64,000 nucleotides of DNA, from assembly GCA_963529855.1 (NCBI GenBank), contig CAURZK010000005.1, positions 28,759 through 92,758 of the forward strand, read 5' to 3'. A program made the position numbers and the translations under genes. Source of the DNA: an uncultured Erythrobacter sp. (lineage in GTDB: Bacteria; Pseudomonadota; Alphaproteobacteria; Sphingomonadales; Sphingomonadaceae). Under the pieces are notes generated by a model. That model was not told where the DNA came from. It saw only the letters and a program-made list of their open reading frames with translations, and searched no databases. Positions 9,779 through 36,307 of the stretch are shown piece by piece. How positions within the stretch are numbered: the first letter of the stretch is position 1; every line of letters begins with the position of its first letter.

Positions 9779-10056
9779 GGCCGCATCCACGCCGGATAGC
9801 GGAGGTGGCGGCGGGCCACGTCCACGAATTGCGGGTCGCGGCGGGCGGCCCAGACGGACAGCCCGTGGCCGATGGCCCAGATGGCGAGGCCGGCGATCCA
9901 GAGGCGCAGGCCGAGGCCGATCGCGCCTGCCAGCGTGCCGTTGACGATGGCGAGCGCGCGCGGGGCGCCGCCGAGCAGGATCGGCTCGGTCAGCGCCCGA
10001 TGGACCGGAGCATAGAAGCCGGCGATCGGCTCGACGGGATCGGCCGCGCCCGTCAT
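9775..10056 (-). CDS. trbD: Conjugal transfer protein TrbD (VirB3-like)
   Basis: 93 aa with FYAPVHRALTEPILLGGAPR plus two hydrophobic helices. ATGA overlaps on both sides. Confidence 0.85.
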   Translation of the reverse strand: MTGAADPVEPIAGFYAPVHRALTEPILLGGAPRALAIVNGTLAGAIGLGLRLWIAGLAIWAIGHGLSVWAARRDPQFVDVARRHLRYPAWMRP

Positions 10057-10388: not shown

Positions 10389-11371
10389 GGCAGGTCTCCG
10401 GGGTGGGGGGTGGTGAGCGGTGCGAGGCGGTAGTCGCCGGTCGCGGGGTCGAGCCCGTCGACGCGGGCCAGCTCGGTCAGCCGGCGCCCGTGCCCGTCGC
10501 GGACCAGCACGGCGATCAGGTCGATGGTCTCGGCCAGCAGCGCGCGCGGGACCGTGACGACAGCCTCCTGGATGAGCTGCTCCATGCGGCGCAGCGCGCC
10601 GAGCGCGGTCCCGGCGTGAATGGTGCCGATGCCGCCGGGGTGGCCGGTGCCCCAGGCTTTGAGAAGGTCGAGCGCCTCGGCGCCGCGCACCTCGCCGATG
10701 GGAATGCGGTCGGGGCGGAGCCGCAGCGAGGATCGGACGAGATCGGACAGCGAGACGACGCCATCCTTGGTCCGCATGGCGACGAGGTTGGGCGCGGCGC
10801 ATTGCAGCTCGCGCGTGTCTTCGATCAGGACGATGCGGTCGGAGGTCTTCGCCACCTCGGCGAGCAGCGCGTTGACCAGCGTGGTCTTGCCGCTGCCGGT
10901 CCCGCCCGCGACGAGGATGTTGGCGCGTGTCTGCACGCCATCGCGCAGCGCCGCCGCCTCGGCCGCCGACATGATCCCGGCGGCCGCATAGTCGTCGAGC
11001 GTGAACACCGCGACGGCGGGCTTGCGGATTGCGAAGGCCGGCGCGGCGACGACGGGCGGCAGCAGCCCCTCGAACCGCTCGCCCCCTTCCGGCAGCTCGG
11101 CCGAGACGCGCGGGGATCGGGCGTGAACCTCGACGCCGACATGGTGCGCGACCAGGCGGACGATGCGCTCGCCGTCCGCGGCGGCCAGCGTCATGCCGGT
11201 ATCGCTGATGCCTTCGCCGAGCCGATCGACCCACAGCCGGCCGTCCGGGTTCAGCATCACCTCGATGACGGCGGCATCGTCGAGCCAGGCCGCGATCGAC
11301 GGACCCAGCGCCGTGCGCAGCATCCGCGCACCGCGTGACTTCGCATCGGAACGGATCGGGTGGACGGTCAA
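10385..11371 (-). CDS. trbB: Conjugal transfer ATPase TrbB (VirB11/PilT class)
   Basis: Walker [30 protein letters not shown]. Confidence 0.95.
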
Positions 11372-11479
11372 GAAAAAAGCCCCTGATGAGGGCCGGGCGA
11401 ACCGCCGCCCGGCGTCAGGGGCACATCAAGAGAGACAGAAAAGACCGTGCTTCAACAACTAAATGCGGGCGTCGTAGTC

Positions 11480-11507
11480 TGGCGTAGAGATACAAGAACT
11501 GGCGTAG
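11480..11507 (-). promoter_or_regulatory. Paired 8-mer TGGCGTAG x2 at 20-bp spacing upstream of trbB (candidate operator)
   Basis: TGGCGTAG at 11480-11487 and 11500-11507 in the low-GC intergenic region between the RHH gene and trbB. The same architecture occurs at 14021-14048. Confidence 0.4.
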
Positions 11508-11512
11508 TCAGT

Positions 11513-11932
11513 TCATTCTTCTTGAGGCGGAAAGTCCTCGCCGATTTCTTGTCTGACCTTCGGACCTTTCGCGAGTCGGCGGCCCAGCGCATCCATGAAT
11601 GCGTCGTAGCGGTCGCCGCCCTGGCGACGCATCGCGGCTCGCTCGCTCTCGGGCGGCGGCGGGGTATTCGACAGCCAGAAGCGCACGAACAGCGCGATCA
11701 TCTCGACACCGATCCCCGTGTCGCGCTCCAGCCGGGTGATGCGCCGATCCAGCTTGTCGAGCCGCTTGGCGATGGCGGCCTCGCGCTGCTCATCGGCATC
11801 GGGCGACAGGAAGGAGGCGATGGCCGCCTCGGCGATCAGCGAGCGAGACTTGTCCCTCCGGTCAGCATAGGCGGCGAGCGCCCGCATCAGCTCGGGGTCG
11901 AGATAGACCGACAGCGGCGTCTTGGTGCTCAT
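11513..11932 (-). CDS. Ribbon-helix-helix (CopG-like) regulator
   Basis: N-terminal beta-strand/helix pattern TPLSVYLDPELMRALAAYADRRDKSRSLIAEAAIASFL. Sits between traG and trbB with a 4-nt overlap with the traG stop. Confidence 0.65.
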   Translation of the reverse strand: MSTKTPLSVYLDPELMRALAAYADRRDKSRSLIAEAAIASFLSPDADEQREAAIAKRLDKLDRRITRLERDTGIGVEMIALFVRFWLSNTPPPPESERAAMRRQGGDRYDAFMDALGRRLAKGPKVRQEIGEDFPPQEE

Positions 11933-13959: not shown

Positions 13960-14020
13960 GGCACCGAAGTCGATGCGTGCCGGACACCAAATCAAGTCAC
14001 TGTTATTATGGAGGAAAGTC

Positions 14021-14048
14021 TAGCGTAGAAAGACAGGGAGTAGCGTAG
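14021..14048 (-). promoter_or_regulatory. Paired 8-mer TAGCGTAG x2 at 20-bp spacing upstream of traG (candidate operator)
   Basis: TAGCGTAG at 14021-14028 and 14041-14048 in the AT-richer relaxase-traG intergenic region. Confidence 0.4.
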
Positions 14049-14194
14049 TTCGGCCTATTCGATTTCCGAGCGTGATCAGCGTTATTGGACGAATATTCAC
14101 GCGATAGCCGGACCACGGCCCGGCTCTCTGCGCGCTCGGGGTCAATGACGGTGCGCCGCGCCATCGGGATTGACGTTGCGCGTGATGATCTGGC

Positions 14195-15925
14195 CTACAG
14201 GCCCAGCCCCCGGCCGCGCCCGAACGACCAATCGACGCCGCCGCCCGCGCGCATGACGCCGGATATGTGCTTGCCGATCTGGCGGTCGAGCGACGGAGAC
14301 CAGGGCACGAGTTGGAAGCTCAGCCCGTTGTCGATCATCGCGAAGCGGCCCGAGGCGAGCGTTATGCGCTGGCGCACGGTGCCCGCGACATACTCCCCGG
14401 CCTTGGACGGCGCGTGCGGCAGGCCGACCTCGGCCGACAGTTCCTTGGCGGCTTCGTCCAGCTCGCGGCGGCGGAGCGTGTCGAGCAGGTTGCGCGCGAA
14501 GATGATGCGCTGGCCCTGCCGCCGCGCCAGCCCTTCGTCGGCGAGATGCTCGGCGCGCGCTTCCATCGCGGCGCGCACCTCGCTCCCGAAGCCGCCGCCG
14601 AGATCGTGGCCGTCGCTCGACAGGTTGCGCCGGTCGAGCCAGGTTGCTCCCGGCGCGCGGACCTGCGCCTCGATGTCCATGTCGGAGCGCACGGCCAGCG
14701 CCACCCGCTGCCGGCCTTTCCGGTCCTCGAAGCGGCGCAGCTCGACGATCGCGCCGGGTCGGCAATCGCCGGTCGCCTCGATGTCGGGAAGCTGGACATG
14801 GTGGGTGCGGCCGTCGATGCCGTCCACGATCGCATAGGCTTTGCCGGTCAGCTCGTCATGCAGGCCGCGATCGACCAGCCTGCCGACAACGGGCTGAGCC
14901 GGATCGGCGTCGAGGACGTAGCTGCCGGCGCCCCGGTCGATGCCGCGGTCGCTCATCGCCTTGTGCATCCGCTTGATGATGTCGTCGCGCTCGCCCAGCT
15001 CGCGCAGCGCCGCCTGGGCGTCGCCCGCCAGCGTCCACTGGCCGGGCGCGATCTCGCTGGCGAGGCCGAGCCCCTCCAGCTTGCGCAGCCGGCCCATCCT
15101 CAGCACATGGTCGCCGTCGGGCCGGACGCCGGGCTCGGGCGCCATGTCGATCACGCCGTCGCGCTGCATGGTCCGCGACAGGTCGCGGTCGATCTCGGTC
15201 CAGCGTTCGGCTTCGACCTGCCGCTCCAGCGACTGCCGGATTTCGAGGTCGGTGCGCGGGCCGAGTTCCTGGGTCACGATCTCGCGCGCCTGCGCCCGCA
15301 TCCCCTCGCGGATATAGTCGCGCGAGATGACGAGGTTCTGCCCATCCTCGGCGACGCCGCGCACGATGATGTGGACGTGCGGGTTGTCGGTGTTCCAATG
15401 CTCGACCGCGCGCCAGTCCAGGCGCGTGCCGAGATCCTTTTCCATCCGCGTCATCAGCTCGCGGGTGAAGCCCTTGAGGTCGCGCATCTGCTCGGCGTCC
15501 TCTGGCGAGACGATGAAGCGGAAATGGTGGCGGTCGTCCTCGCAGCGCGCCGCAAACTCGTTGCGGTCGAGACCCTCGGCCTCAGCGCCGAACAGCACGC
15601 CCTTCTCGCCGTCGCGGGTAACGCCATCGCGTTGCAGGTAATTGAGATGGGCGGCGAGCGAGGCGCGGCCGCCATGCCGGACCACGCGCGCCTTGACGAC
15701 GACCTGCCGCGATCGGTGGCCGAGGCGGTGGGTCGCGCGCACGCTCGCGACGCGGCCCCGGCCGAAGGTCGAGCGGCCCGGCGCGACGATGCGCCCACGG
15801 CGCGAGACATGACCGCCAGCACGCTGGGCGGCGGCGAGCGCCTGAACGATGATCGGCAGCGCCCGCTGGCTTCCCCGCGAGCGGATGCGACCAGGGCGGA
15901 CGCGGAAATCGTCGTCGCCGCTCAT
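14195..15925 (-). CDS. Conjugative relaxase / mobilisation nuclease with large C-terminal domain
   Basis: N-terminus MSGDDDFRVRPGRIRSRG, His motif NPHVHIIVRG, 576 aa. Start moved to ATG 15925. Confidence 0.8.
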   Translation of the reverse strand: MSGDDDFRVRPGRIRSRGSQRALPIIVQALAAAQRAGGHVSRRGRIVAPGRSTFGRGRVASVRATHRLGHRSRQVVVKARVVRHGGRASLAAHLNYLQRDGVTRDGEKGVLFGAEAEGLDRNEFAARCEDDRHHFRFIVSPEDAEQMRDLKGFTRELMTRMEKDLGTRLDWRAVEHWNTDNPHVHIIVRGVAEDGQNLVISRDYIREGMRAQAREIVTQELGPRTDLEIRQSLERQVEAERWTEIDRDLSRTMQRDGVIDMAPEPGVRPDGDHVLRMGRLRKLEGLGLASEIAPGQWTLAGDAQAALRELGERDDIIKRMHKAMSDRGIDRGAGSYVLDADPAQPVVGRLVDRGLHDELTGKAYAIVDGIDGRTHHVQLPDIEATGDCRPGAIVELRRFEDRKGRQRVALAVRSDMDIEAQVRAPGATWLDRRNLSSDGHDLGGGFGSEVRAAMEARAEHLADEGLARRQGQRIIFARNLLDTLRRRELDEAAKELSAEVGLPHAPSKAGEYVAGTVRQRITLASGRFAMIDNGLSFQLVPWSPSLDRQIGKHISGVMRAGGGVDWSFGRGRGLGL

Positions 15926-15935
15926 GGCGCGACAG

Positions 15936-16150
15936 GCCGCAATGTGCGGCAAACCCTGATGGCGACGGGCTTTGGCCCTGCGCCGCACAGTGCGGGATTT
16001 CCGCACACATTGCGCAGCAATGCCCGAAAGCCTTGAGAATCAAGGCCACAACCGAGGCGCAAGGGCTCCGCACATTGCCGCCCTTTATCTTGCCCTCGAC
16101 CTTCCCCCTTCAGAAAAACAGCCCTGCTTCCTTCCGGCGCTGCGAAAGCC
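15936..16150 (-). other. Inverted-repeat cluster upstream of the relaxase gene (candidate oriT / regulatory region)
   Basis: Hairpins at 15936-15950, 15983-15995, 16030-16046 and 16122-16150. The motif CCGCACA(n)TTGC occurs at 16001-16013 and 16068-16078, and inverted at 15939-15949. Confidence 0.3.
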
Positions 16151-21891: not shown

Positions 21892-22737
21892 TCAACCCGT
21901 TTTTAGGCGCTGCATCCCTTCGGCTAGCGTCCAGAGCGCGCGATTGAGTGTCACATTCTGGTCGATGCCATTGATGGCGCGAGTCTGGCTGCGGCGGATA
22001 CGGCCCTCAGCGTTACGCTTGCGGCCATGCAACCCGCCCCGAATGACGTTCTCCTGAATCACGTTGAACGTGCTCCACAGGCTGTTGCCTACATCCTCGC
22101 GGCGGCGCGGCTCGATGATCTGCTCGGGGCGAAGCGGGCTTTCATCGTCGCCATAGCGGGCGACAAGGCTTACCTCGCCAAGCAAGCGCTGTTCGTCTCA
22201 CGAAAGCTGCACACCCTTCATGGTCTCGCTGGCGTCGATCAGTCGCGGAAAGTCTTCCGCCACGGTATAAACGCCCTCGATAATGTCGTCCTGAATGTTG
22301 CCCTTGTGCGGCACGCGGACCTCCTCGAACCGCTCGCCCGCAATCATGCTGTTGGTGCAGACGAAGCGCAGCATCCCAGCGAACATCTGATAGGCGCTGG
22401 TCCCGTCATGGCTGTTAACGATGATGACTTCCGCCGCCTCCGGCTTGCCGATACCGTCATCCCGGCGCAAGCGCAGCATATGCTTGGCGTGGCCGTGGCG
22501 GCTGCCGTCGCGCGGGACCGACTGCACGGCGAAGAACGGGAACCATCCTTCGCGGCGCAGCCCCTCCACGATGTCGATGGTGGGGACATAGACATAGCGC
22601 TCGGAACGGCTGTCGTGCGCCTCGCGGGCGAAGATGGATGGCACGTGGCGATACAGCGCCTCGTTGTCGAGCGGTTCACGTCCGCTGATCTGGTGGGCGT
22701 TGCGGCCGAACCGGGTAGCGAGATGATGGATGCTCAT
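21892..22737 (-). pseudogene. DUF932-family gene interrupted by a single in-frame TGA (22198-22200)
   Basis: Track ORFs 22198..22866 (from ATG 22737) and 21892..22185 are in the same frame and read ..VQLS*DEQRLLGEVSLVARYGDD... The combined 281 codons have the expected DUF932 length and the C-terminal pattern LWSTFNVIQENVIRGG..LNRALWTLAE. Confidence 0.65.
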
Positions 22738-23095
22738 GAGTCTGTCCTTCCTTGGGTCTGGGTTTCGCGCAGCGAAGCGCCGCGCTGAAACCCTGCCCGG
22801 CGGCGAGCCAGGGGTAGCAAAGGGCAAGGGCGGCCGGGGCGGAGGGGGATCACCCGGCCTGCACAAGCGAAGCGCGGAAGGCTGGGGATACCGCCCCGGA
22901 CGGTTCCACTTCCCTTGCCCGGCGCGAGGGCAACGCCCTTAGCAACCGCGCGGCGCCAGCCGCGCTGCGACCAGCGCGACGATCAAGGATGCTTGATCGG
23001 CCCATCTGGATTAGAGATACCTGCGAGCAACTCGCAAATAGTGCCCCGCCCATAATCGGGCGCGGATCAAGAACCGAAGACCTGGAAGGACAATA

Positions 23096-24969: not shown

Positions 24970-25269
24970 TCAGCGCGACCAGATGAGGGCGTATTGGCCG
25001 GCGGTGTCGGTTTCGGACAGCGTGGCGTAGACGGGAGCCGGGAAGCTCGGATCGTCCAGCTTGACCGAGGTGTATTCGCGGCCTTCGCGGCTGGTCTTCT
25101 TCCAGGCAGCGCCGATATCCATGTCGGCGGTGCTGACGCGGAAGTCGGGGGACTTTTCGCCGTCCTTCTCGACCGGACGGAAGATGACCTTGGTGTTGAG
25201 AGTGAGCGTCTTGATGACGCCGGTGAACTCGCCCTTGCTGTTGGCGGTGAAGGTGCCGATCGTAGCCAT
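24970..25269 (-). CDS. DUF736 protein (paralog 2)
   Basis: 99 aa, MATIGTFTANSKGEFTGVIKTLTLNTKVIFRPV..PDFRV..IGAAWKKTSREGREYTSVKLDDPSF..YALIWSR. RBS GGAGA. Start moved to ATG 25269. Confidence 0.8.
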   Translation of the reverse strand: MATIGTFTANSKGEFTGVIKTLTLNTKVIFRPVEKDGEKSPDFRVSTADMDIGAAWKKTSREGREYTSVKLDDPSFPAPVYATLSETDTAGQYALIWSR

Positions 25270-25658
25270 GTCGTAATCTCCGTTCTTTCGGGCCACGCCC
25301 TTCGCGGCCTCGATGGTGATCGGCAGGCCGGGGGCGATTGGCCGCGCACCGCAAAGCGGCCGCAGCGTGAGCGGAGGATGGCGGCGGCCCGTTATTTTGG
25401 TTCGCGATGCAAAGCGCGGCACGCGCGGCGGAAAATAGCGGGCCATAGCCGTTGCGAAGACAATCGAGGCGAAGCCGTCGCTCGGTCAGATCACGCCATT
25501 GAGAGGCCGCCGGGGCGCTCGGCTCCGAGGGATGAGATTTCCGCTATGCCTGCCGTTTGTGTCGGCAACCCCGCCAGCAGCCTTGCGCGATGTTCATTCT
25601 ACGTTCCAAGGTGCGGCTGCTTCAGCCACATGGGGACGTGAGGATTCGGGGGAAGGAC

Positions 25659-26459
25659 GTGACGAAATTGTTTTCGCAGGATCAGCTCGAAGCCATAGCC
25701 GGTGCGCTTGGCGATACGGAAACCGGGCTGAAAGGAACCGAGATCGCGATGCTGATCGCGACCTGTCAAATGGCCGATCCCGGCGAGATGACCAAGCGGC
25801 ACCGCATCTACAACGCCTTCGCCGAAAGCCAGAACGCGCGGCAGGACCGCACCCGCATCCTCGGCTTCATCCGCCATGCGATGCGTCCTGCGCGATACAG
25901 CCGCGAGCCGCATCGCTACGAGCCGATGCGTGCCAGTCTCAACCAGGCACTCGCCTTCGCCGGCCTTGTGGTCAGCGAGGCCGGGAAGATCGAAGCGGTC
26001 GAACAGGCGACGACGCTGCCGGAAGCGCAGCGCCGGGCGAAGGAACTGCGCACCGATCTGGAGACGCGCGGCGTCCATGCCGACGTGCTGCGCTTCTGCC
26101 GGGCCGAACTGCTGGCCGACGACTATTTCCATGCGGTCCAGGAAGCGGTGAAAAGCATCGCCGACAAGATGCGCGTGCGGACTGGCCTCACCGATGACGG
26201 GGGGACGCTGGTAGACCGCGTGCTCGGCGGCGAGCCGCCGATGCTGGCGATCAATCCGCGAAGCACGGTCAGCGAGCGCAGCGAGCAGAGCGGCTTCGCC
26301 AATCTCGTCAAAGGCGTCTTCGGCATGTTCCGCAACCCAACTGCCCACGAGGCGCGCATCCACTGGCCGATGACCAAGACCGACGCCGAGGATCTGCTGA
26401 CGCTCGTATCGCTGATCCATCGCAGGCTCGATACCTCTATGATGCCACCGCGTACCTGA
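25659..26459 (+). CDS. TIGR02391 / Hypoth_ymh-family protein
   Basis: C-terminal FANLVKGVFGMFRNPTAHEARIHWPMTKTDAEDLLTLVSLIHRRLD (the RNPxxH motif recalled for this family). GTG 25659 is preceded by GGGGGAAGGA. Confidence 0.65.
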   Translation: MTKLFSQDQLEAIAGALGDTETGLKGTEIAMLIATCQMADPGEMTKRHRIYNAFAESQNARQDRTRILGFIRHAMRPARYSREPHRYEPMRASLNQALAFAGLVVSEAGKIEAVEQATTLPEAQRRAKELRTDLETRGVHADVLRFCRAELLADDYFHAVQEAVKSIADKMRVRTGLTDDGGTLVDRVLGGEPPMLAINPRSTVSERSEQSGFANLVKGVFGMFRNPTAHEARIHWPMTKTDAEDLLTLVSLIHRRLDTSMMPPRT

Positions 26460-26464: not shown

Positions 26465-28207
26465 TCAGGGTGGCGGCGGATTGGCAACGTAATCGTCGAG
26501 CGCAGCCACGATCCGGTCGAGTAACCCGGCAAATTTCGAGAAATCGATCGTGTCCTTCTGCGGCTGCACAACCTTCTCGGCGAACCTGGCTTTGCCGTAT
26601 TTCCCGGCCTCTCCGTGCTTCTTGTTGGGGTCGAACACCTTACCATCAATGACGGTTTTCAAAAGCGCGGGATCGAACAAGTCCTCAATGCAACTTATGC
26701 CTTGCGCACCGATTTCCGGTGTTTTGATAAGATAAAGATTGGGTGCGAGCCGATAGAATGGGTCCGTGGAGGTCCGAGCTATATGCGCGGCGCCGAGGCC
26801 CTTGGCGGCACCAAAAATCTCTTTCGCTCCGTCGTCATTGTCGATGAGCACGATGATGGGGTTGGGCAGCGGGCGATGTCGGTAACGCTTGAGGGCGTCA
26901 GGGTAGCGGCGGATAAAGTGGAAAAGATCGCCTGCGCCATTCCCGAGCTGCAACACGTCATGGATCGTGCTGGAGAACTTCATGAACTTGAGTGCGGGTT
27001 TAAACTTGCCTTTGTCCATCGCGCCCAGCCTGGGATGGTAGGCAGTGAGCTTCTCCATCGCCGCACGCAGATAGACGGTATCCGTCTTTCCCTCCGGGAT
27101 GATGAGGGGCTTGGGCGCCACAACGAAGTTTCGGTAGAACAGAAACCGGATGTAGAGCTTACGGGTCGCCGTGGCCGTCGCGTCCTTCTTTTTGTCAGCG
27201 GAAGGTCGCGTATCGACCTGATCGCGCACATGATAGACGTGGCCGAGCATCCCTTGCAGCGGCGCGAGGGATGTTGCCGGCTCCGGCACATCGGGATCGC
27301 CTGCTTTGCCGCCCGCCAGCGCCGCAGGGACCATCCGATAGTAGGTTCCGCTGTTGAACAGCGACCAGCACATGGCCCGCACCGTGCGGTAGTATTCGGG
27401 ACGGACGTTCGGCTTCTCGTTGACGAGCAAGCCGGTGGCGACCTGTCGTGACCCGCGATATTGCATCCTAGTCTTGGTAGGATTTACCTCAAACCCGGCC
27501 TTTTCGATCTCCTTCAGGAGCGCGGCGCCGAGTGTCCAGTCATGCTCCGAGCCTGCGACCGGGGCGGCGATGTCAGGAGGGAATGCCTTGGCGTTCGTGG
27601 AAAAGGTGATGTCGTCGGCATAGCGTGAGTAGGTGCATTTCTGCGCCTTGGCGAAGCGCACGAGCCGGATGTCCAGTAGATGCCCGACGACATTTGAAAT
27701 GACCGGGGAACAGGGACTTCCTTGGGGAAGGACATGATCGTGGCAGGCGATCTGTGCGATCAAGGTCGCGATTTTCGGATCGAGGGCGAACCGTTTGTCC
27801 TTAATGAACATACCGCGCACGCGGCCGAAATTGATCGACGGGAAGAAATCCTTGATGTCGAGATTCAGCACGTAGCGCCGCCGTTTGTGGACCGCGGCGT
27901 TCGTTACGATGGACAGATGTTTGGCGAAGCCGTGGGAGAGCTGCCGGCGCGGTGAACCCACCTTGTCGATGTCGGCGAGCGCCAGGTAGAGGACATTGGC
28001 TAGACGCCGTTGCAGCAGCTTCAGCTTGGGCGTCGGGGCAAGAATCGCCCTCGGCGTGCCGTCGCGCTTCGGGATCGTGAACGCGGTATATTTCTGCGCG
28101 TCTGGGAGGTGATAGAGCAGGTAGGCAAGCGCGGCGGGCTTATATCCCAGGATCGCAGCTAGATCGTCGAGCGACTTTGCCGCTTGTAGTTTCGCCAGAC
28201 TCGACAC
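26465..28207 (-). CDS. Retron-type reverse transcriptase fused to a C-terminal TOPRIM domain
   Basis: NAAVH (aa 103-107), LDIKDFFPSI, LPQGSPCSPVISN, YSRYADDITFS (193-203), RQVATGLLVNEKPNV. TOPRIM signature IIPEGKTD (E372) and VLIDNDDG (D456-459). GTG start after AGGGGGG. Confidence 0.9.
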   Translation of the reverse strand: MSSLAKLQAAKSLDDLAAILGYKPAALAYLLYHLPDAQKYTAFTIPKRDGTPRAILAPTPKLKLLQRRLANVLYLALADIDKVGSPRRQLSHGFAKHLSIVTNAAVHKRRRYVLNLDIKDFFPSINFGRVRGMFIKDKRFALDPKIATLIAQIACHDHVLPQGSPCSPVISNVVGHLLDIRLVRFAKAQKCTYSRYADDITFSTNAKAFPPDIAAPVAGSEHDWTLGAALLKEIEKAGFEVNPTKTRMQYRGSRQVATGLLVNEKPNVRPEYYRTVRAMCWSLFNSGTYYRMVPAALAGGKAGDPDVPEPATSLAPLQGMLGHVYHVRDQVDTRPSADKKKDATATATRKLYIRFLFYRNFVVAPKPLIIPEGKTDTVYLRAAMEKLTAYHPRLGAMDKGKFKPALKFMKFSSTIHDVLQLGNGAGDLFHFIRRYPDALKRYRHRPLPNPIIVLIDNDDGAKEIFGAAKGLGAAHIARTSTDPFYRLAPNLYLIKTPEIGAQGISCIEDLFDPALLKTVIDGKVFDPNKKHGEAGKYGKARFAEKVVQPQKDTIDFSKFAGLLDRIVAALDDYVANPPPP

Positions 28208-28225
28208 CCCACCCCCCTAACAGGC

Positions 28226-28361
28226 GGCTTACAGGCACTCCTATGCGTACGATCAGATCGTCCGCTCAGCGGAAATGCTGCAATAAGGGTAGATGGAAGC
28301 ATCACTGCCTAACATCGGTGTCTTATATCGCGATGCGCGATAACAACTCTGCCTGTAAGCC
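28226..28361 (-). ncRNA. Candidate retron msr/msd locus
   Basis: Perfect 12-nt inverted repeat (28226-28237 / 28350-28361) encloses 112 nt with internal hairpins at 28326-28342 and 28245-28265. The proximal arm lies 18 nt upstream of the RT start codon. Two more hairpins lie at 28383-28406 and 28411-28427. Confidence 0.45.
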
Positions 28362-28450
28362 TGCGGCTGTTGTTGTCCAAAGCACTTACAATTTCAAGTG
28401 TAAGTGGCGAGCCGGGCAAGCCCCGGCGAGCTGCAGACTCAAACGACAAA

Positions 28451-28487
28451 GCGGCCGCGCCCGATTGGGGCGCGGCCGCGATTTTTT
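28451..28487. terminator. Strong intrinsic terminator hairpin (bidirectional-looking)
   Basis: GCGGCCGCGCCC-GATTG-GGGCGCGGCCGC, a 12-bp stem. It is flanked by TTTTTT on the plus strand and TTTGTCGTTT on the minus strand. Lies 28 nt after the stop of the 74-aa minus-strand gene. Confidence 0.7.
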
Positions 28488-28514
28488 GGGGCCGATTGCG
28501 AAAGGCTGTGCGGA

Positions 28515-28739
28515 TCAGCGCTGCGCTTCGCGCCAGCGCCGGGCCGCCGCCGCGCTGAACAGGGGGCGGTCTACACAGGCGCGATGCTCGACCACGAAGG
28601 CGGCGCAACCGTGCAGGACATAATCGTGGGTGACGATCTGATCGTCGGAAAAGTCGTTGATCGGCTTGCCGCAGCGGATGCAGCACAACGTGCCCGGCTG
28701 GTTGTTGCGGCGGGCGATGACGCGGAACAGGCGGCGCAT
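28515..28739 (-). CDS. Small Cys-rich (zinc-ribbon-like) hypothetical protein
   Basis: 74 aa with a strong RBS AAGGAGG 6 nt upstream of the ATG. Contains LCCIRCGKP...HGC..HRAC. Confidence 0.45.
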   Translation of the reverse strand: MRRLFRVIARRNNQPGTLCCIRCGKPINDFSDDQIVTHDYVLHGCAAFVVEHRACVDRPLFSAAAARRWREAQR

Positions 28740-28832
28740 GACGGCCTCCTTGCAGCAAGAGCGCCGCCCCGAAGGCCGGCGCGAAGGTGCGGGTGAAGCC
28801 GGGACCGCTGACGCGGCCCCGGCCCGATGCCG

Positions 28833-30902
28833 CTATTCGGCGGCGACGGCGTAGGCGGCTTCGCCATCCTCAGCCTGCGCTTCGGGAGCCTCCGCCTCGG
28901 ACGGTTCCACGGTCCCCGTATCCTCGTCCTCGACCGACGCGGGCTGCTCGGTCTCCGGCTCGGGCGTCCGCAGGATCGAGGGCAGCCATCCGGTCCCGGC
29001 CAGAAGCTGCTCGGCGGCTTGCGCCATGTCCGGCTTCTTCATGTCGGCGATACGGCGGGCGGCATCCTCGGACACGCCTTCAGTGACGGCCTCGACGATA
29101 TGACCCTTGGTGACGCGGCCGAGGTAGCTCTCCACGGTCGGCGTCCAGTCCTTCGCCACGTCCAGCGCCAGCGCGGTCGCCAGCCTGTCCGCCGTTTGTA
29201 GCGACAGGGGCTTGCGATCCCACGGCAGGCGCAGCGCGTTGACGGTGCGGGCCGCGCAATGCGCCAGCAGCAGGGTCCGCTTCTCGCAGTCCAGCGCCAC
29301 GATGAAGCCCCACAGGTCCGCCACGTCACGCGGCATCCGTTCGGCCCATGCCTCGTGTTGCTCGCTCGCCCGTGCCGCCAAGGGGGTGTCCTCGATCCCG
29401 TCCGCATGACTGCCAAGCGGCGTCACGGTCGGACGAACCTCAAGGCAACCGGCCTCGGCGTAGCTGTAGAACAGTTGCGCCGTGAGCGTATGGGTCAAGG
29501 CGACCAACGCCATATCGGGTTGCTCGGCCAGCGCCACGCGGAGCGCCAAGGTCCGATGGGCGGACAGGTCGCGCGTGAGGCTGTCGGAAATCGGCTTGCC
29601 CGGTTCCTCGTCCTCCACGTCCTCGGCTTCGGGCTCATCCTCGGCCTGCTCGTCCTCCACGCCCTCCGGGTCGATCCCTTCGCCGTCGACCTCATCCTCG
29701 GGCTGCGGGAAGGCCAGCGCCTCGTCCTCGGCCCGAATGAAGCCGCGCTCGATCCTGACCGCGCCGTCATGGTGCAGCACCACGAACGCGCCGCCGTAGG
29801 CGATCACGTTGGCGTCATAGGCATGGCGCTTCTCGGAAATGGCGTCGATCTCGTCGGAAATCGCCTCCAGCTTCTCGGCTACGTCCTCGGGCATTTCGTC
29901 GTAGGACGAATAGCCTTCGGCAAGCGCGTCATGCTCTGCGGACAGGGTGTCCAACCGCGCCTCGTCCTCATCGGACAGCGAAACGGATTGCGGATAGAAG
30001 CGCCGCATCCCGTGGGCGTGGGGGTAGTCGATATGCGCCTCGGCCCATTTCCAGCCTTCGGCCTGCACCGTCGCGGCAACCTCGCGCAGCTTCTCGACCG
30101 CAAGCATGTCGAGCAAGCCCGCATCCTCGAAGAAGCCGCCCCGGTCCTCGCTGAACAGGTCGCGGATGATATTGCCGCCCGCCTCGACATAGGCGTCGGC
30201 CCCGACGAACACCGCGCGTCGGTCGGTCGCCGGAACATTGCTCGCGGTCATGTCACGCCGGATGATCCACGGCTCGCGATTGTGATGCAGGCCCTCGAAC
30301 ACCTGCTCCTGCCGGGCATGGTCCTCGGTGATGGCGAAGGCCATAAGCTGGTCCAGCGTAAGGCCGTCCTCGCGATAGACCTGCAACAGCTTCGGACTGA
30401 CAGCGCCCAAGCGAAGCCGCTGCTTCACCACGGAGGCCGACACGCCGAACCGCGCCCCGATCTCTTCCGCGCCCCAACCCTTGTCGTTGGAAAGCTCGGC
30501 GAACCGCTCGAACTGGTCGGCGGGGTGCATGGGGGTGCGGGTGACATTTTCGTCAAGGCTTACCTCGGCGGGATCATTCGCCGTATCCAGCCAGCACCGG
30601 ACAGGTTCGGATTTCTTGCATTGTTTGCGCTTGGCGCGCAGCAGCATCGCCAGCCTGCGGCCCTCGCCAGCGGTGACGAGATAGTAGCTGGTCGGCGTCC
30701 CGTCCTCCTTGGTTTCCGGCTCCACGACAAGGTTCTGGATCAGCCCCTTATGCTGGATCGAAGCGGCCAGCGCCTCGATAGCGGCTTCCCCATGCGGCAC
30801 CTTGCGCGCGTTGCGCGGGGACTTCTTGAGCTTGGCGAGCGGCACGAAAATCTCGACGCCAGACACAGGCTCGGCGGCTGCGGTTTGGGTAACAGCGTTC
30901 AT
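28833..30902 (-). CDS. ParB-like N-terminal domain protein (ICE backbone)
   Basis: VPLAKLKKSPRNARKVPHGEAAIEALAASIQHKGLIQNLVV and HTH-like GWGAEEIGARFGVSASVVKQRLRLG, followed by a long acidic C-terminal part. ATG 30902 has an AAGGAG RBS (track ORF starts at 31169). Confidence 0.85.
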   Translation of the reverse strand: MNAVTQTAAAEPVSGVEIFVPLAKLKKSPRNARKVPHGEAAIEALAASIQHKGLIQNLVVEPETKEDGTPTSYYLVTAGEGRRLAMLLRAKRKQCKKSEPVRCWLDTANDPAEVSLDENVTRTPMHPADQFERFAELSNDKGWGAEEIGARFGVSASVVKQRLRLGAVSPKLLQVYREDGLTLDQLMAFAITEDHARQEQVFEGLHHNREPWIIRRDMTASNVPATDRRAVFVGADAYVEAGGNIIRDLFSEDRGGFFEDAGLLDMLAVEKLREVAATVQAEGWKWAEAHIDYPHAHGMRRFYPQSVSLSDEDEARLDTLSAEHDALAEGYSSYDEMPEDVAEKLEAISDEIDAISEKRHAYDANVIAYGGAFVVLHHDGAVRIERGFIRAEDEALAFPQPEDEVDGEGIDPEGVEDEQAEDEPEAEDVEDEEPGKPISDSLTRDLSAHRTLALRVALAEQPDMALVALTHTLTAQLFYSYAEAGCLEVRPTVTPLGSHADGIEDTPLAARASEQHEAWAERMPRDVADLWGFIVALDCEKRTLLLAHCAARTVNALRLPWDRKPLSLQTADRLATALALDVAKDWTPTVESYLGRVTKGHIVEAVTEGVSEDAARRIADMKKPDMAQAAEQLLAGTGWLPSILRTPEPETEQPASVEDEDTGTVEPSEAEAPEAQAEDGEAAYAVAAE

Positions 30903-31360
30903 TGTCTTCACTCCTTCAAAAGCACACGCACCCCGGAGCGGGGTGGGCGGCGAAAGAGCGACCGGCAGGCCCGCCGGCGGAGCCGGGCAGCACCCAAGGG
31001 GCCGGAAAGAAGAGGAGGACGCGCACCGCGCGTTGCGGCCCGGCGCGGCGGGCCTAAAGGGAAGCGACGCCCACCCCGCGGGAGGGGAGCGTAGCGACCC
31101 AACAAAGCGATCGGGACGGCGCACGCCCTGGCCCGATCTCCGCAGTCTGGAAAAGCTGGAATCCGCCACGGCGGATTTGCCGATCGGCGTGGATACGCCG
31201 ACGTTTGGGGCGTTGCGGGGTTGCCCCCGCTTGAAGGGGTCTGACGAGACCCGCGTGGCTCGTCAGTAGGGGAAGTCCTTCCCCAACCGGTCGGTGACGT
31301 CATCCTGTAATTACGGTTGCTTCGGCGCTTCCGGGAGTCTGATTGCAGCGCTAGTCATAT

Positions 31361-32119
31361 GTGATGAGCACAGCCTACTTAAACGCGATTCTGGCTCGGG
31401 AGGCTGTCGATACCAGCGCATTCTCCCCTGTTCGGCAGGTCCAAACAATTATCGCGCCCGTGCTTCAACGATGGGCAAACCGTTTCTTGCTGTCGATCTC
31501 TCCAAGCGGTTCTTTTGCCAAGGGCACGGCCAATCGAAGCGGCACCGACATCGACCTTTTCATTTCTCTGCACGAAGACACGCCCGAAACCTTGAAGGAT
31601 ATTTGCGGCTCGCTCTTCAACGCCATTGCGGGTGCCGGCTATGCGCCAAAACGGCAGAATGTGTCGATCAACGCGACGATCGGCGGCTTCGATGTCGATC
31701 TCGTCCCTGGCAAACGGCAGACCGCCTGGACGACAGATCACAGCCTTTACCGTCGCAAAGCCGATACCTGGACGAAGACAAATGTGACGACACATATCAA
31801 CACCGTCGTCATGGCCGGCCATCAGCGCGAGTCGCGGCTCCTGAAGCTATGGCGCAACCAGAAGCGGCTCGAATTCCCGTCCTTCTACCTGGAGCTGACA
31901 GTGATCGCCGCCTTGCACGGTAGGCAATCGCAGGATCTGGCGCAGAATGTTGTGAAGGTGCTGGAGTATCTCCGAGACAGGTTCGCCGCAGCACGGGTGG
32001 TCGATCCCGCCAATGGCAACAACGTCATATCGGACGATCTCACCGACACGGAGAAGCAAGCGGTGCGGCGATTGGCGGAAGCTGCGCTGAGCGGCAATTG
32101 GAGCGGTTTCGTCCAATGA
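31361..32119 (+). CDS. cGAS/OAS/SMODS-like minimal nucleotidyltransferase
   Basis: Pol-beta NTase signature SPSGSFAKGTANRSGTDIDLFISL (G50-S51, D63, D65) with a third Asp in GGFDVDLVPG (D111/D113). OAS1-C-like helical lobe LKLWRNQKRLEFPSFYLELTVIAAL. 252 aa. Confidence 0.8.
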   Translation: MMSTAYLNAILAREAVDTSAFSPVRQVQTIIAPVLQRWANRFLLSISPSGSFAKGTANRSGTDIDLFISLHEDTPETLKDICGSLFNAIAGAGYAPKRQNVSINATIGGFDVDLVPGKRQTAWTTDHSLYRRKADTWTKTNVTTHINTVVMAGHQRESRLLKLWRNQKRLEFPSFYLELTVIAALHGRQSQDLAQNVVKVLEYLRDRFAAARVVDPANGNNVISDDLTDTEKQAVRRLAEAALSGNWSGFVQ

Positions 32120-32835
32120 CCGACTGGTCCCTCAAAACTCTGCTGCAAAGCCTGCACGACGAGATCGAAGCGAAGCTGGGCATCGCGCGCGGTAGCTTCG
32201 GCCACGGCGGAACGAAGGGTGACGCCAGCGAAGCTGTTTGGCTAGAGCTGTTGCAGGCCTATTTGCCGGAACGGTATCGCGCTGCCGGCGCCCATGTCGT
32301 CGACAGCAAGGGCGCCTTCAGCCACCAGATCGATATCGTCATTTTCGATCGGCAATATTCGCCCTTTATCTTCAATTTCAAAGGCCAGTTCATCGTACCG
32401 GCAGAGAGCGTCTATGCCGTGTTCGAGACCAAGCAGGCGATCAATGCCCAGCACGTCGCTTATGCAGCGGACAAGGTGGCCAGTGTTCGCGCGCTCCATC
32501 GGACGAGCCTGCCGATACCCTACGCCGGCGGTGTCTACGATCCGCGACCGCTGCCGGACATTATCGGCGGATTGCTTACGTTCGAAAGCGTATGGAATCC
32601 GCCGCTGGGCCAACCGCTGACCGATGCGCTCGCAGCCCTCGATGGGCAGCACCGCCTCGATATTGGATGCGTCGCGGCGCATGGGGTGTTCGGCTGTGAC
32701 ACGGACGGCTGCTCGCAAGCGGAGGTCGGCGTGCGAGCGGCGACGCGCTTCCTGCTCAACCTTATCGCTCGCCTCCAGGCGAGCGCGACGGTTCCGATGA
32801 TCGATGTGGGTGCCTATGCCGCGTGGCTCGACTGA
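32116..32835 (+). CDS. PD-(D/E)xK-type putative nuclease (DUF6602-like), coupled to the NTase
   Basis: ATG 32116 overlaps the NTase TGA (ATGA). Contains HGGTKGDASEAVWLELLQAYLP, SHQIDIVIFD (D73) and VFETKQ (E104-x-K106). 239 aa. Confidence 0.6.
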   Translation: MTDWSLKTLLQSLHDEIEAKLGIARGSFGHGGTKGDASEAVWLELLQAYLPERYRAAGAHVVDSKGAFSHQIDIVIFDRQYSPFIFNFKGQFIVPAESVYAVFETKQAINAQHVAYAADKVASVRALHRTSLPIPYAGGVYDPRPLPDIIGGLLTFESVWNPPLGQPLTDALAALDGQHRLDIGCVAAHGVFGCDTDGCSQAEVGVRAATRFLLNLIARLQASATVPMIDVGAYAAWLD

Positions 32836-32847: not shown

Positions 32848-35310
32848 CTAAGCTGCCGGGATCGGAACCGCGATCTGATTGGCGACGGCGGTATAAAGGT
32901 CGATGTCGGTCTCGGGCGCGCGGATCGACACACACAATGCATAGCGGGCGGAACGATCCCAGCGCTGGAGACCAGGCTTCTCCTTCCACCATCCGCTGAC
33001 GGGAAAGACGCCGATCGCGTCGCGCTCGGCGAGGGCTGCCGCGCTCCCACGCCAAATGTCGCTATGGATCGAACCGCGGTCACGGATCGTCCCCAGAACC
33101 CAGGAGTCGCCGCCTGCGACAGCGCCGACAGCGCCAGCCTCTTCGTCCTGAGCCGCCTTGTTGATCCGCTGCCGGAACGCTTCCAAACCTTCGAGCGACC
33201 GCTTCACCGCAAAGCGGAGATTGTGTGAAGCGTAGCGGTGGCGCCGCGTCCAGCCCCGTTCTCCGGGATTGGGCTCGACGAAATAGGACAGGGTGATCCG
33301 CAGTTCCACATCGAGATCGCCAAGCGCGGCCAGTTCGGCGCGCGGCCAGGGCAGTCGATGCAGATTCATGTCGCGCGTCTTGATCGCCGAGCCATCCTTG
33401 CGGAACGGCAACAGGGCGTCCTCGACCATCAAAGTCGCGTCGTTGGACGCGCTCATCAGCGCCCGGCCAAGGTCAGGCACGCCCCAACCGTAGCGGCGCA
33501 GCATGGCCAGCTTCTGACTTTGCGAGCCGGCCGCGTCGAAGCGCTGGCGCATCGCCGGCGTCCATTCGGCGGAATGGACAATGAGCGCGCGTACCGTTTC
33601 CGGCCAGAGTGTCGGACGCGCTGCGATAATGCCGGCGGCAAGATTCGCGCCGAGCGCGGCAGCGCCGCTGGTGTCGCCGAACGCTTCAAACAGGCGCATG
33701 GCGGGACGATAGTGGGTCGTGAGGAGTTGGAGGTCGTCGATCGCCGAGGCCGGGTTGGCGCCGTCATGCGCGAAGTTACCGCCCTCGAACACGACATCCG
33801 GACGGATCGGCCATTGCCGATCCCAGATTGCGGACGTTCGGCTTGCCGGTGAGAGGTCGCCGGCCGGGGCGACGGGCGTCCATCCGTCATAGTCGGGATG
33901 GGTGATCATGATCTTGTCGGTGCTGGCCCCAACGACGAGCGGATTCCACGCCTGCCCCGGGCTTTCGACCTCTTCGAGGTCGTTGCGGTCAGGATAGTCG
34001 GCCGGATTGATGTCCCCGCGGAGATTGCCCGCCGCCAGGACCATGAGGCGTCGCCTGTCACCGCCGCCATAGCAGAGTTGATCGATTGACGAGGACCACG
34101 AGGACGGCCGGCCTCGGCCCAGGCCGACGTCGCTGGTCACGGCCATGCAGAACACGCGCCGGCGACGGGGAGCATGGTCTTCGGCGCGGGCGATGCCGGT
34201 TGCCGTGATCGCCCCGTAAAGTCGCGGCTCGTTCTGCCCGGTTGGCGGCAGGATCTTCACCGTTTCGAGGCGATGACCAAGCGCGACCGGCTCGCCGTGG
34301 GAAAGCGCCGCTTCGAGATCGCCATAAAGCGCGACACCAGCCATCGAGGTGCCGTGACCATTCCAGAAGGCGCTGTCGCCGACACCCCAGTCACCGTCGT
34401 AGCTATGCTGATCGGCAGGATCGAGGCCAGGCGCGAGCAGGGGGTGGGCCTGGGTCGCTCCGCTGTCCAGTATGCAGACCGCCGGTGCCAAGGGGGACGG
34501 CGGTGCGATCCGATCAGCCAAGTCGTTCGCCCAAGCGGCCTGATCGACCGTGCGCATTTCGAGAAAGAGCGACGGCGTGTCCTTGGCGAGGCGCAGTTCA
34601 GCGACGACATCGGAATTGCGTATCAGCCGATCCATCGTCGCTTCATCGGCGAGCGCCAGCGCGACATCGCGCTCGGGAAAGCTGATGACGTGATCCTTGA
34701 TCGCGACATCGAGCTTGGCAGCGACAGACTGGAAGATTGCGAGACCGCCATCCCGAAGCCAGACTTCCCACCACACCTGACGGCCGTCGGCGGGAAAGTG
34801 CTGCGCTTCATCGGTGAATAGCGAGCGAGCGACCGCGACCCTGATATCGTCGATCCGAGCGATCAGGGCCTCGTTCTTGGGCTTGCCGGTGCGCGTCTCC
34901 TCGTCGCGATAGGCTTCGATCTTCTTGACGAAGAAATCGGCAGCGGCTTCCGGGACAAACACAGTGGCCGAGACCATTTCGTCGCCCTCCGCAGTGGGCC
35001 GCACGGCTACCAGTTCGATAGCCTTCGGCTTGTTCTCCAGGGCTTCGACAGCGGCGCGCTCGGCGATAGGAATATCGAACTCTAGATAAAAGCCTGGCTG
35101 GCCCTCGGCTACGCCATCTTCCCGATCGGCGAGCCGTTGGCGGCCGGCGGCCAGCGCCGTTCCGATCGCCTGTTCCAATCGTGCGGCGTGCGCGGCTCGC
35201 GCCCGCGCGGGAGGGAGGCCGCTTATGACCAGGCGCGGTGACGTGTAAGCCTCGCTTTGGCCGCCGCCTTCGACGTGGAAATGGGGGCGGTCGCGGGGAG
35301 GTACAGCCAT
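32848..35310 (-). CDS. S8 (subtilisin-like) serine peptidase with ~270-aa unassigned N-terminal region (IetS-like)
   Basis: Catalytic motifs VCILDSG (D282), WNGHGTSMAG (H319), LAAGN (N429) and FGDTSGAAALG (S548). 820 aa. Starts 13 nt downstream of the AAA+ gene. Confidence 0.85.
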   Translation of the reverse strand: MAVPPRDRPHFHVEGGGQSEAYTSPRLVISGLPPARARAAHAARLEQAIGTALAAGRQRLADREDGVAEGQPGFYLEFDIPIAERAAVEALENKPKAIELVAVRPTAEGDEMVSATVFVPEAAADFFVKKIEAYRDEETRTGKPKNEALIARIDDIRVAVARSLFTDEAQHFPADGRQVWWEVWLRDGGLAIFQSVAAKLDVAIKDHVISFPERDVALALADEATMDRLIRNSDVVAELRLAKDTPSLFLEMRTVDQAAWANDLADRIAPPSPLAPAVCILDSGATQAHPLLAPGLDPADQHSYDGDWGVGDSAFWNGHGTSMAGVALYGDLEAALSHGEPVALGHRLETVKILPPTGQNEPRLYGAITATGIARAEDHAPRRRRVFCMAVTSDVGLGRGRPSSWSSSIDQLCYGGGDRRRLMVLAAGNLRGDINPADYPDRNDLEEVESPGQAWNPLVVGASTDKIMITHPDYDGWTPVAPAGDLSPASRTSAIWDRQWPIRPDVVFEGGNFAHDGANPASAIDDLQLLTTHYRPAMRLFEAFGDTSGAAALGANLAAGIIAARPTLWPETVRALIVHSAEWTPAMRQRFDAAGSQSQKLAMLRRYGWGVPDLGRALMSASNDATLMVEDALLPFRKDGSAIKTRDMNLHRLPWPRAELAALGDLDVELRITLSYFVEPNPGERGWTRRHRYASHNLRFAVKRSLEGLEAFRQRINKAAQDEEAGAVGAVAGGDSWVLGTIRDRGSIHSDIWRGSAAALAERDAIGVFPVSGWWKEKPGLQRWDRSARYALCVSIRAPETDIDLYTAVANQIAVPIPAA

Positions 35311-35323
35311 CGGGCCTCGTTGC

Positions 35324-36307
35324 TTAGAGGATGGCCGCGCGCCGCTCCGTCAGAGCGGTCAGCAGCGTCGCGGTCGTCACGCCGTCGTGGCCATCCAGCA
35401 CCGCGACTTTTGCCGCCTCGTCGGCAGCTCTGGCGACTTCGGCCTGGGAGAGATGGGCAGCGGATTCGAGAACAGGCCCCCATTCGATCGGCTTGAGATC
35501 GAAGGTCGCGAGCCGGGCTTCGAGGATGCCCTGCACAACCGAGGGATCGGGAAGATCGTAACTGATGACATCGTCGAACCGGCGATAAAGCGCCTTGTCG
35601 AGCAATTCGGGGTGATTGGTCGCGGCGACGATGAGGCTCGGGCCATCGTCATTCTCCAGAAACTGGAGGAAGGAATTGAGCACCCGGCGAATTTCCCCGA
35701 CGTCGTTCGGCCCGGCCCGTTGCGCACCGATCGCGTCAAACTCGTCGAAGAAGTAGACACCGCGCTGCATGGCAACGGCGTCGAAGACAAGTCTCAGCCG
35801 TGTGGCGGTCTCGCCCATGAGCTTGCCGATCAGGCCGTCGTAAAGGACCGTGAAAAGGGGCAGCTTCAACTCGCCGGCCAGGGCGGCGGCGGTCATTGTC
35901 TTGCCTGCGCCAGGAGGGCCGACGAGCAGGAGCTTGCGGCGCGGCGCGAGCCCCCGCGCGCGAAGCCGCTCCTGCTGGCGCTGTTCCCGAAGCACGCGCG
36001 CAAGCCGCTCCTCAAGTTCCGGCTTGAGCACCATGCTCGACAACCGGACATCGGAATAGCGGGCTTCCAGAAGCCCGGCGAGTTCACCCTTCGGCTGCGC
36101 CATTGGCACGGGGCCGGCCCCGCGCCGCGCCACCGTCGCGCTTTTACCCTTGGCGGCGTCGACCAGTTCGCGCAGCTCCTGAGCGAGCTTCCCATGCCCT
36201 TGCCTCGCCTCATGCGCGGCAAGCTGCGTCGCCACGGAGAGGAAGCGATCTTCATCCCCGTCGATATGGCTTTGCAGCAGTGCAACGATGTGGCGCGCGG
36301 TTGTCAT
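35324..36307 (-). CDS. AAA+ ATPase (IetA-like)
   Basis: Walker A GPPGAGKT (130-137), Walker B VYFFDEFD (D188 E189), sensor-1 VAATNHPE, Arg ALYRRFD. Confidence 0.9.
   Translation of the reverse strand: MTTARHIVALLQSHIDGDEDRFLSVATQLAAHEARQGHGKLAQELRELVDAAKGKSATVARRGAGPVPMAQPKGELAGLLEARYSDVRLSSMVLKPELEERLARVLREQRQQERLRARGLAPRRKLLLVGPPGAGKTMTAAALAGELKLPLFTVLYDGLIGKLMGETATRLRLVFDAVAMQRGVYFFDEFDAIGAQRAGPNDVGEIRRVLNSFLQFLENDDGPSLIVAATNHPELLDKALYRRFDDVISYDLPDPSVVQGILEARLATFDLKPIEWGPVLESAAHLSQAEVARAADEAAKVAVLDGHDGVTTATLLTALTERRAAIL

Follow-up and report, generated by a model that had tools for sequence, protein, structure and literature searches.

An RT-TOPRIM retron of the Ec67/Eco2 family and its conserved non-coding RNA in sphingomonad DNA

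Introduction

The multicopy single-stranded DNA (msDNA) called msDNA-Ec67 is a long-described retron product. Its retron, Eco2 (Ec67) of Escherichia coli, is a type I-C1 system in which one gene codes for a reverse transcriptase (RT) fused to a TOPRIM nuclease domain. Such RT-TOPRIM retrons were catalogued in 2020, and the structure, the triggers and the transfer RNA (tRNA)-cutting mechanism of Eco2 appeared in print in 2025-2026. The present work concerns an RT-TOPRIM gene and the non-coding RNA (ncRNA) preceding it in a 64,000-nucleotide (nt) stretch of DNA, hereafter the window (uncultured Erythrobacter sp., assembly GCA_963529855.1, contig CAURZK010000005.1, positions 28,759 to 92,758). 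Very probably, the locus is a type I-C1 retron of the Ec67/Eco2 family that is intact and belongs to the cargo of an integrative or conjugative element of Sphingobium.

In Eco2, the RT makes a branched msDNA, and msDNA and msRNA tie the RT-TOPRIM protomers into a trimer in which the TOPRIM sites are caged by the msDNA (PMC12916289, PMC12405507). The decay of the msDNA is started by phage nucleases, namely DenB of the T-even phages, with A1 of phage T5 also implicated, and the uncaged TOPRIM then nicks the acceptor stems of tRNAs as well as other RNAs and stops translation (PMC12916289, PMC12405507). Phage defence by Eco2 requires the active sites of its RT and of its TOPRIM (PMC12916289, PMC12405507). 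By definition, a type I-C retron consists of one gene, and Eco2 acts on its own (PMC12916289). An original prediction, drawn up from the letters of the window only, knew of no described msDNA, trigger or mechanism for RT-TOPRIM fusions; this is out of date, since msDNA-Ec67, DenB and A1, and tRNA cleavage have all been described (PMC12916289, PMC12405507).

Results and Discussion

The RT-TOPRIM fusion protein

The protein-coding part of the locus and its domains are as follows.
26465-28207, minus strand: RT-TOPRIM fusion gene (coordinates include the stop codon) for 580 amino acids (aa) from a GTG start; type I-C1 member of the Ec67/Eco2 retron family.
27218-28207, minus strand: reverse transcriptase domain, about aa 1-330, with NAAVH, YADD and the thumb motif RQVATG; placed by Pfam RVT_1 and by alignment with the Eco2 RT.
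26468-27130, minus strand: TOPRIM nuclease domain, about aa 360-580; placed by residue alignment with the Eco2 TOPRIM.

The open reading frame (ORF) of the original prediction was recovered with its GTG start, and every motif that had been quoted is present at the residues given for it. The GTG at 28207 is the earliest possible start because an in-frame TAG lies three codons upstream, and in the Gluconobacter orthologue (L003, 84% identical) a canonical AGGAGG is found five nt 5' of the same GTG. Pfam RVT_1 (E = 1.5e-20, aa 45-250) was the sole Pfam match on the protein. The RT motifs are NAAVH (103-107), LDIKDFFPSI (116-125), LPQGSPCSPVISN (160-172) and YSRYADDITFS (193-203), in which the YADD active site occupies aa 196-199 (nt 27611-27622), compared with 199-202 in Eco2. 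The thumb segment RQVATGLLVNEKPNV is located at aa 254-268, with RQVATG (xTG motif) at 254-259.

The C-terminal part contains the TOPRIM motifs IIPEGKTD (369-376, with E372 and D376) and VLIDNDDG (453-460, with D456, D458 and D459). The residues E372 (codon 27092-27094), D376 (27080-27082), D456 (26840-26842) and D458 (26834-26836) align with E374, D378, D460 and D462 of the solved Eco2 TOPRIM, in agreement with the C-terminal TOPRIM domain that had been proposed, and E372, D456 and D458 are unchanged across 14 homologues. Alanine substitution of E374, D378, D460 and D462 in Eco2 abolishes its RNase activity (PMC12916289). That the catalytic residues of the locus are intact is directly established.

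Membership of the family was likewise directly established. The protein scored 684.7 bits with the NCBIfam model NF038237 (retron_Ec67_fus), for which the cut-off is 450, aa 4-573 covering model positions 1-572, and matched the PADLOC model RT-Toprim_I-C with E = 3.2e-215. The two top PADLOC models, PDLC02966 and PDLC02963, are the two given by Eco2 itself, in the same rank order. In a search of solved structures, the best match was the Retron Ec67 (Eco2) protein, known from cryo-EM (PDB 9I2F, 9I2G, 9S1F and 9LM3), and the homology to the Eco2 chain (E = 1.5e-104, residues 2-568 onto 5-575) settles the protein fold. The retron-type RT of the original prediction is thus upheld by the Ec67 model and by the Eco2 alignment, the non-retron models staying below their cut-offs (given below).

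Both systems are single RT-TOPRIM fusions, of 580 aa here and 586 aa in Eco2, which can be aligned end to end with 36% identity over the whole length and share the YADD, EGxxD and DxD catalytic residues as well as their best PADLOC and NCBIfam models. They differ in the linker, or trimer-contact region, which is not conserved, and in the GTG start of the present gene. NCBI already lists an identical Sphingobium yanoikuyae protein as a member of the Ec67 family, and 53 contigs were seen to encode it.

Within type I-C, EGxxD in motif IV together with DxD in motif V marks I-C1 and I-C3, whereas I-C2 has DxE (PMC7736814). The protein has EGKTD at 372-376 (motif IV) and DND at 456-458 (motif V), which fits I-C1 or I-C3 and not I-C2. 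The subtype I-C1 was assigned because of these motifs and because the PADLOC ranking matches that of Eco2, an I-C1 retron. On sequence comparison, the RT is placed inside the retrons, in the Ec67 family, type I-C.

Other retrons resemble the locus in part. Types XI (RT-protease) and XII (RT-TIR) are also single-gene fusions with sister RT domains (PADLOC RT-TIR_XII 336 bits and RT-Protease_XI 324 bits over aa 1-330), but the C-terminal effector is here a TOPRIM and not a TIR or a protease; the NCBIfam TIR-retron model gave 289.5 bits, under its cut-off of 600. In types I-B1 and I-B2 (e.g. Eco8), a retron TOPRIM nuclease is again regulated by msDNA, but it is carried on a separate ATPase-TOPRIM protein of the OLD family and cuts DNA. 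The similarity to the Eco8 RT is weak (E = 3e-5), and the TOPRIM of type I-C is a distinct lineage, fused to the RT (PMC7736814). Ec86 (Eco1), type II-A, shares the RT fold of retrons (E = 1e-26) and likewise relies on a1/a2 repeats together with a branching G, whereas its effector is a separate N-glycosidase, its assembly is filamentous, its ncRNA is different and it has no TOPRIM domain.

Structure and conservation of the non-coding RNA

The region 5' of the GTG contains the following elements.
28226-28361, minus strand: retron ncRNA with msr and msd, bounded by the a2 and a1 arms; 108 bits with the covariance model R1 described below.
28350-28361, minus strand: a2 arm GGCTTACAGGCA, 5' half of the closing stem.
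28226-28237, minus strand: a1 arm TGCCTGTAAGCC, 3' half of the closing stem, ending 18 nt before the RT start codon.
28326-28342, minus strand: msr hairpin TATCGCG-CAT-CGCGATA, covarying helix 2.

The two arms of the perfect 12-nt inverted repeat (28226-28237 / 28350-28361) lie 112 nt apart and, like the smaller hairpins, were found at the coordinates that had been reported earlier. In 500 dinucleotide-preserving shuffles of 28208-28450, no inverted repeat of at least 12 nt was obtained, the longest being of 11 nt. Hairpins were detected at 28326-28342, 28245-28265 and 28383-28406, and the one at 28411-28427 appears in the RNA fold. The region 28220-28368 folds at z = -3.4 relative to shuffles, with the a1/a2 stem closing the fold.

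Rfam 15, searched over 27900-28900 with E up to 10, gave sub-threshold chance matches only and no retron or msr match. Because Rfam has nothing for the region, the ncRNA was tested by comparison of loci. A scan of one genome per species yielded 80 loci, with relatives at 39-90% identity. In the three closest intact loci (L001-L003), the segment from a2 to a1 is identical almost base for base, and conservation drops upstream of a2. In 68 of the 77 loci with enough upstream DNA, the same position has an inverted repeat that is perfect over 8 nt or more. In the family, these repeats are followed by G-A in nearly all cases, enclose 97-123 nt and mostly end 6-34 nt before the RT start, and their arm sequences vary from one locus to another (e.g. 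GGCTTACAGGCA, GCCTACAGCCA, GGGTTGCAGGAA and AGCTTATGAACA).

Covariation was analyzed on 69 ncRNAs aligned by sequence only with MAFFT, from which RNAalifold recovers both the a1/a2 stem and the msr hairpin. The paired cells amount to 96.9% and double-sided changes are seen in 17 of 18 pairs, with 250 compensatory cells for 67.5 expected. The observed pairing and compensation were reached by none of 500 shuffles, and pairing falls to 30-45% when the partners are slid by 1-3 columns. In helix 1 (a1/a2), compensatory changes affect 11 of 11 pairs and 97.5% of cells are paired, figures that are partly biased by the choice of loci for having the repeat. Helix 2 (the msr hairpin), which was not selected for, shows compensatory changes in 6 of 7 pairs and 96.1% of paired cells.

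The covariance model R1 (140 positions) was built from this alignment, without any E. coli sequence. It gives a single match in the window (108 bits, no broken pairs) and matches 78 of 82 sources from several phyla, the misses being three sources without upstream sequence and the locus L066. Nine of the 77 loci had been missed by the exact-repeat scan and R1 recovers eight of them. The trinucleotide A-G-A follows a2 in 77 of 78 loci, and GAGU precedes a1 in all 78. The candidate ncRNA is real and its structure is conserved; as had been proposed, an msr/msd lies between a1 and a2, and the repeat is kept in homologous loci with compensatory changes. The core of the I-C ncRNA (a1/a2 stem, A-G-A, msr hairpin and GAGU) is conserved over about 80 loci of several phyla, and R1 could seed a new Rfam family because no existing one matched the ncRNA region (28223-28364). 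Within the family, the msd varies greatly in sequence. Folding of the msd locus by locus revealed a modest excess of structure only (mean z of -1.2 and -0.7), and no family-wide msd helix is claimed.

Two loci of the collection have an unusual arrangement. In L007 (Poribacteria metagenome-assembled genome, 1168-1319), about 184 nt separate the end of the ncRNA from the position at which the RT match is reported to start, compared with about 20 nt elsewhere; this long gap could be an insertion or a misplaced match start. L004 (Sphingomonas silueang, 76-218 and 1501-3141) is a disrupted copy of the same retron, with an intact ncRNA (101.7 bits) about 1.3 kb upstream of an RT deprived of its first 29 codons. 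The ORFs in between (738-1157 and 1226-1504) look, by eye, like a frameshifted transposase of the IS5 family.

Predicted msDNA

The positions below were transferred from Eco2.
G 28349, minus strand: predicted branching guanosine, equivalent to Eco2 G15, with priming from its 2'-OH; placed by homology from the R1 alignment and A-G-A.
G 28313, minus strand: predicted stop of reverse transcription, equivalent to Eco2 G52 (pair G52:dC67), after the AAUG motif.
A 28239, minus strand: predicted first template base, equivalent to Eco2 A118, inside the invariant GAGU.
28239-28313, minus strand: predicted msd template, 75 nt, containing the hairpin 28245-28265.

The msr-msd sequence of Eco2 was verified by a 100% match in 14 complete E. 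coli genomes, in which it lies immediately 5' of the Ec67-family gene in a P2-like prophage. This experimentally defined msr-msd is found by R1 with 77.3 bits (E ~1e-17). G15 is the branching nucleotide of Eco2 (PMC12916289). In both retrons the ncRNA is immediately upstream of the gene, its a1/a2 stem has 12-13 base pairs (bp), and a2 is followed at once by the branching G. A single msr hairpin, a stop motif of the AAUG type and the invariant GAGU before a1 are also shared. The predicted msDNA corresponds to the plus strand at 28239-28313, TCCTATGCG...GCCTAAC, of about 75 nt. Applied to Eco2, the same boundary rule returns exactly the published 67 nt, and across the family it gives msd lengths of 60-88 nt (median 71.5). 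The earlier remark that about 136 nt would be short for a retron does not apply to the Ec67/Eco2 family, because the ncRNA of Eco2 is 132 nt long. This natural spread of msd length within one RT family may aid the engineering of retron editors.

The RefSeq annotation of one Eco2 locus was found to be misleading. In E. coli 2012C-4502 (L081, NZ_CP027440.1), the annotated coding sequence (2990-4930) starts 60 codons too early, and the annotated protein consequently spans the whole msr-msd (3001-3132), whereas the 586-aa Eco2 protein starts at 3170.

Upstream flank

Two elements were placed upstream of a2.
28441-28479, minus strand: intrinsic terminator, a 12-bp all-G+C stem followed by TTTGTCGTTT; T-rich tail and hairpin are kept in L001.
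28393-28398, minus strand: -35-like CTTGAA box, about 31 nt upstream of a2; candidate promoter of a transcript carrying ncRNA and RT.

The strong terminator of the original prediction was confirmed. Its hairpin (28451-28479) is called on both strands, and the terminator insulates the retron from the upstream ParB-like operon. Antisense transcription by way of the plus-strand T-tract had also been suggested; it is unsupported, though not disproved, and termination in this direction has no backing from conservation because the tract is absent in the closest relative, L001. The lack of a terminator between the retron and its convergent neighbour also bears on this idea.

The CTTGAA box is kept in L001-L004 and, at an equal distance, is found as TTGAAG in L005 and CTTGAA in L006; many members of the family have -35-like and extended -10-like elements at the equivalent position. 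The promoter is put forward as a candidate because a consensus sigma-70 scan detected none upstream of the ncRNA. The box overlaps the hairpin 28383-28406. Both upstream hairpins of the original prediction exist, but the stem of 28383-28406 is not conserved in L001-L003, where the box is, and this hairpin was rejected as a functional RNA element. The hairpin 28411-28427, with the GCTCGC repeats on its flanks, is conserved among the closest relatives only. It forms part of a small palindrome (28405-28430, minus strand), GCTCGCCGGG-GCTTG-CCCGGCTCGC, flanked by GCTCGC direct repeats, which sits between the terminator and the putative promoter and is kept in L001, in L004 and partly in L002. An ORF of 74 aa with the motif CxxC borders the terminator on its upstream side (28515-28739, minus strand) and may not be a gene; it had no match in Pfam, PADLOC or NCBIfam, and no counterpart in L001 by tblastn.

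Proposed mechanism and alternative explanations

By homology with Eco2, a promoter just upstream of a2 would yield one transcript, with the ncRNA followed by the RT-TOPRIM mRNA. In the ncRNA, a2 (28350-28361) would pair with a1 (28226-28237), the RT would bind the msr hairpin (28326-28342) and prime DNA synthesis from the 2'-OH of G 28349, and copying of the msd from A 28239 to G 28313 would give an msDNA of about 75 nt, branched through a 2'-5' RNA-DNA linkage. Following the Eco2 example, the hybrid of msDNA and RNA would keep the RT-TOPRIM protomers in an oligomer with the TOPRIM active site caged. Degradation of the msDNA by a phage-encoded DNA nuclease would uncage the TOPRIM, and the free TOPRIM would cleave tRNAs and other RNAs, leading to the shutdown of translation and to abortion of the infection. 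In this scheme, Eco2 serves as the model for msDNA production and the precise msDNA ends as well as for the oligomeric state, the trigger and the targeted RNAs.

Several observations weigh against so direct a transfer. The sole characterised member, Eco2, shares no more than 36% identity with the protein. In the linker region, which provides the single protein-protein contact of the Eco2 trimer (residues 325-347), the alignment is poor and gapped, and the oligomeric state is for this reason not confidently transferable. The predicted msDNA, 75 nt against 67 nt in Eco2 and unrelated to it in sequence, has its palindrome nearer the 5' end, at nt 7-27 of 75 in the DNA fold, whereas the three-way-junction segment of Eco2 occupies nt 29-50 of 67. 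DenB and A1 are coliphage proteins, and the host is here a sphingomonad. The negative promoter scan has to be added to these points.

The locus could also be a true type I-C retron that is wired differently from Eco2, with another trigger, another RNA or DNA target or another oligomeric assembly. This explanation draws on the low identity, on the trimer-contact region, which is not alignable, on the displaced palindrome and the high variability of the msd in the family, and on an alphaproteobacterial host whose phages are not of the T-even or T5 types. On the other side, the catalytic residues and the core of the ncRNA (A-G-A, GAGU, msr hairpin and AAUG stop motif) are shared with Eco2, and a cage of nuclease-sensitive msDNA is a general solution which is independent of the msd sequence. 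We consider such a rewiring possible but rather unlikely. In a more specific form, the sphingomonad I-C1 branch would have a different assembly and would sense a nuclease or a DNA-modifying activity unlike DenB or A1, possibly from a competing mobile element. The unrelated msDNA sequence, the 5'-proximal palindrome and the non-conserved trimer-contact loop are the grounds for the rewired branch, and the conjugative context together with the tightly convergent HEPN-type neighbour are those for the competing element; the proposal is speculative and appears improbable.

The convergent neighbour is a Hypoth_Ymh / PD-Lambda-3_B-like (HEPN-type) gene (25557-26459, plus strand), with 5 nt between the two stops as previously noted, and no PD-Lambda-3_A partner was found near it. 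It might act as a second effector or regulator coupled to the retron, for example through overlapping convergent transcripts, considering that no terminator separates the two genes, that the pair is kept in L001 and L002 and that the protein matches a component of a defence system. However, 78 of the 80 loci, among them the 84%-identical Gluconobacter locus, lack the gene beside the RT, and it thus is not a conserved partner. L001 and L002 also share the upstream ParB-like gene, which suggests the same family of elements; the co-occurrence in these two loci would then reflect shared ancestry and not be independent evidence. Moreover, type I-C retrons are single-gene systems and Eco2 works alone (PMC12916289). 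A coupled role of Hypoth_Ymh is very unlikely, and the gene was rejected as a second effector. No accessory gene is conserved, the Ymh and ParB-like neighbours being confined to the two closest loci; in the 80 loci no partner gene is kept, in line with the absence of a separate effector claimed at the outset, and the single-gene layout is directly established.

A decaying remnant, in which the RT gene and the repeat would still be recognisable in a non-functional system, is evoked by the visible disruption of the related copy L004 by an insertion sequence and by the lack of a detected consensus promoter. It is nevertheless hardly credible in view of the full-length reading frame with all its active-site residues, the 108-bit ncRNA without broken pairs, the identical protein on 53 contigs and the 83-91%-identical orthologues, which keep the ncRNA almost unchanged. 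Finally, a non-retron defence RT (DRT/UG, Abi or group II intron) lying next to a coincidental repeat is refuted, the weak sub-threshold matches to the group II RT (47.3 bits, cut-off 300), Drt2 (33.9, cut-off 390) and Drt3a (27.2, cut-off 200) models being far under their cut-offs and the Ec67 model far above its own, while the repeat covaries, is homologous to the Eco2 msr-msd and was not reached in 500 shuffles.

As an Eco2-like type I-C1 retron, the locus adds an unexceptional, intact member to an anti-phage family that is already characterised. What is gained is a precise annotation, with a so far unannotated ncRNA and a predicted msDNA in a Sphingobium conjugative element.

Neighbouring genes and carrying element

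Genes of a conjugative backbone surround the retron in the window.
2002-16006, 22198-22866, 24970-25446 and 28833-31169: conjugative backbone, with genes including CagX, a VirB4/TrbE-like ATPase and the TraG coupling protein.
Further genes of this backbone: a relaxase with DUF3363, DUF932, DUF736 and a 778-aa ParB-like protein.

Because of this backbone, the retron is regarded as cargo of an integrative or conjugative element or of a plasmid in a sphingomonad host, unlike Eco2, which is borne by a P2-like prophage.

The defence cargo of the element comprises further genes besides the retron. A two-gene operon resembling CBASS (cyclic oligonucleotide-based anti-phage signalling system; 31361-32835, plus strand), with overlapping genes, codes for an oligonucleotide cyclase (PADLOC Cyclase, E = 9e-91) and for a NucC endonuclease effector (E = 1e-101; Pfam DUF6602). 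It is adjoined by an IetA/IetS-like pair (32848-36307, minus strand), made of the AAA ATPase IetA (35324-36307, E = 4e-71) and the 820-aa protease IetS (32848-35310, E = 1e-28), and the region of 25.5-36.3 kb is on this account considered as a defence island. The same element contains, at 49300-62204, a copper and heavy-metal resistance cluster with genes for a multicopper oxidase, an outer-membrane factor, a CusB-like protein with a CusF domain, a pump of the CusA/AcrB type and a P-type ATPase.

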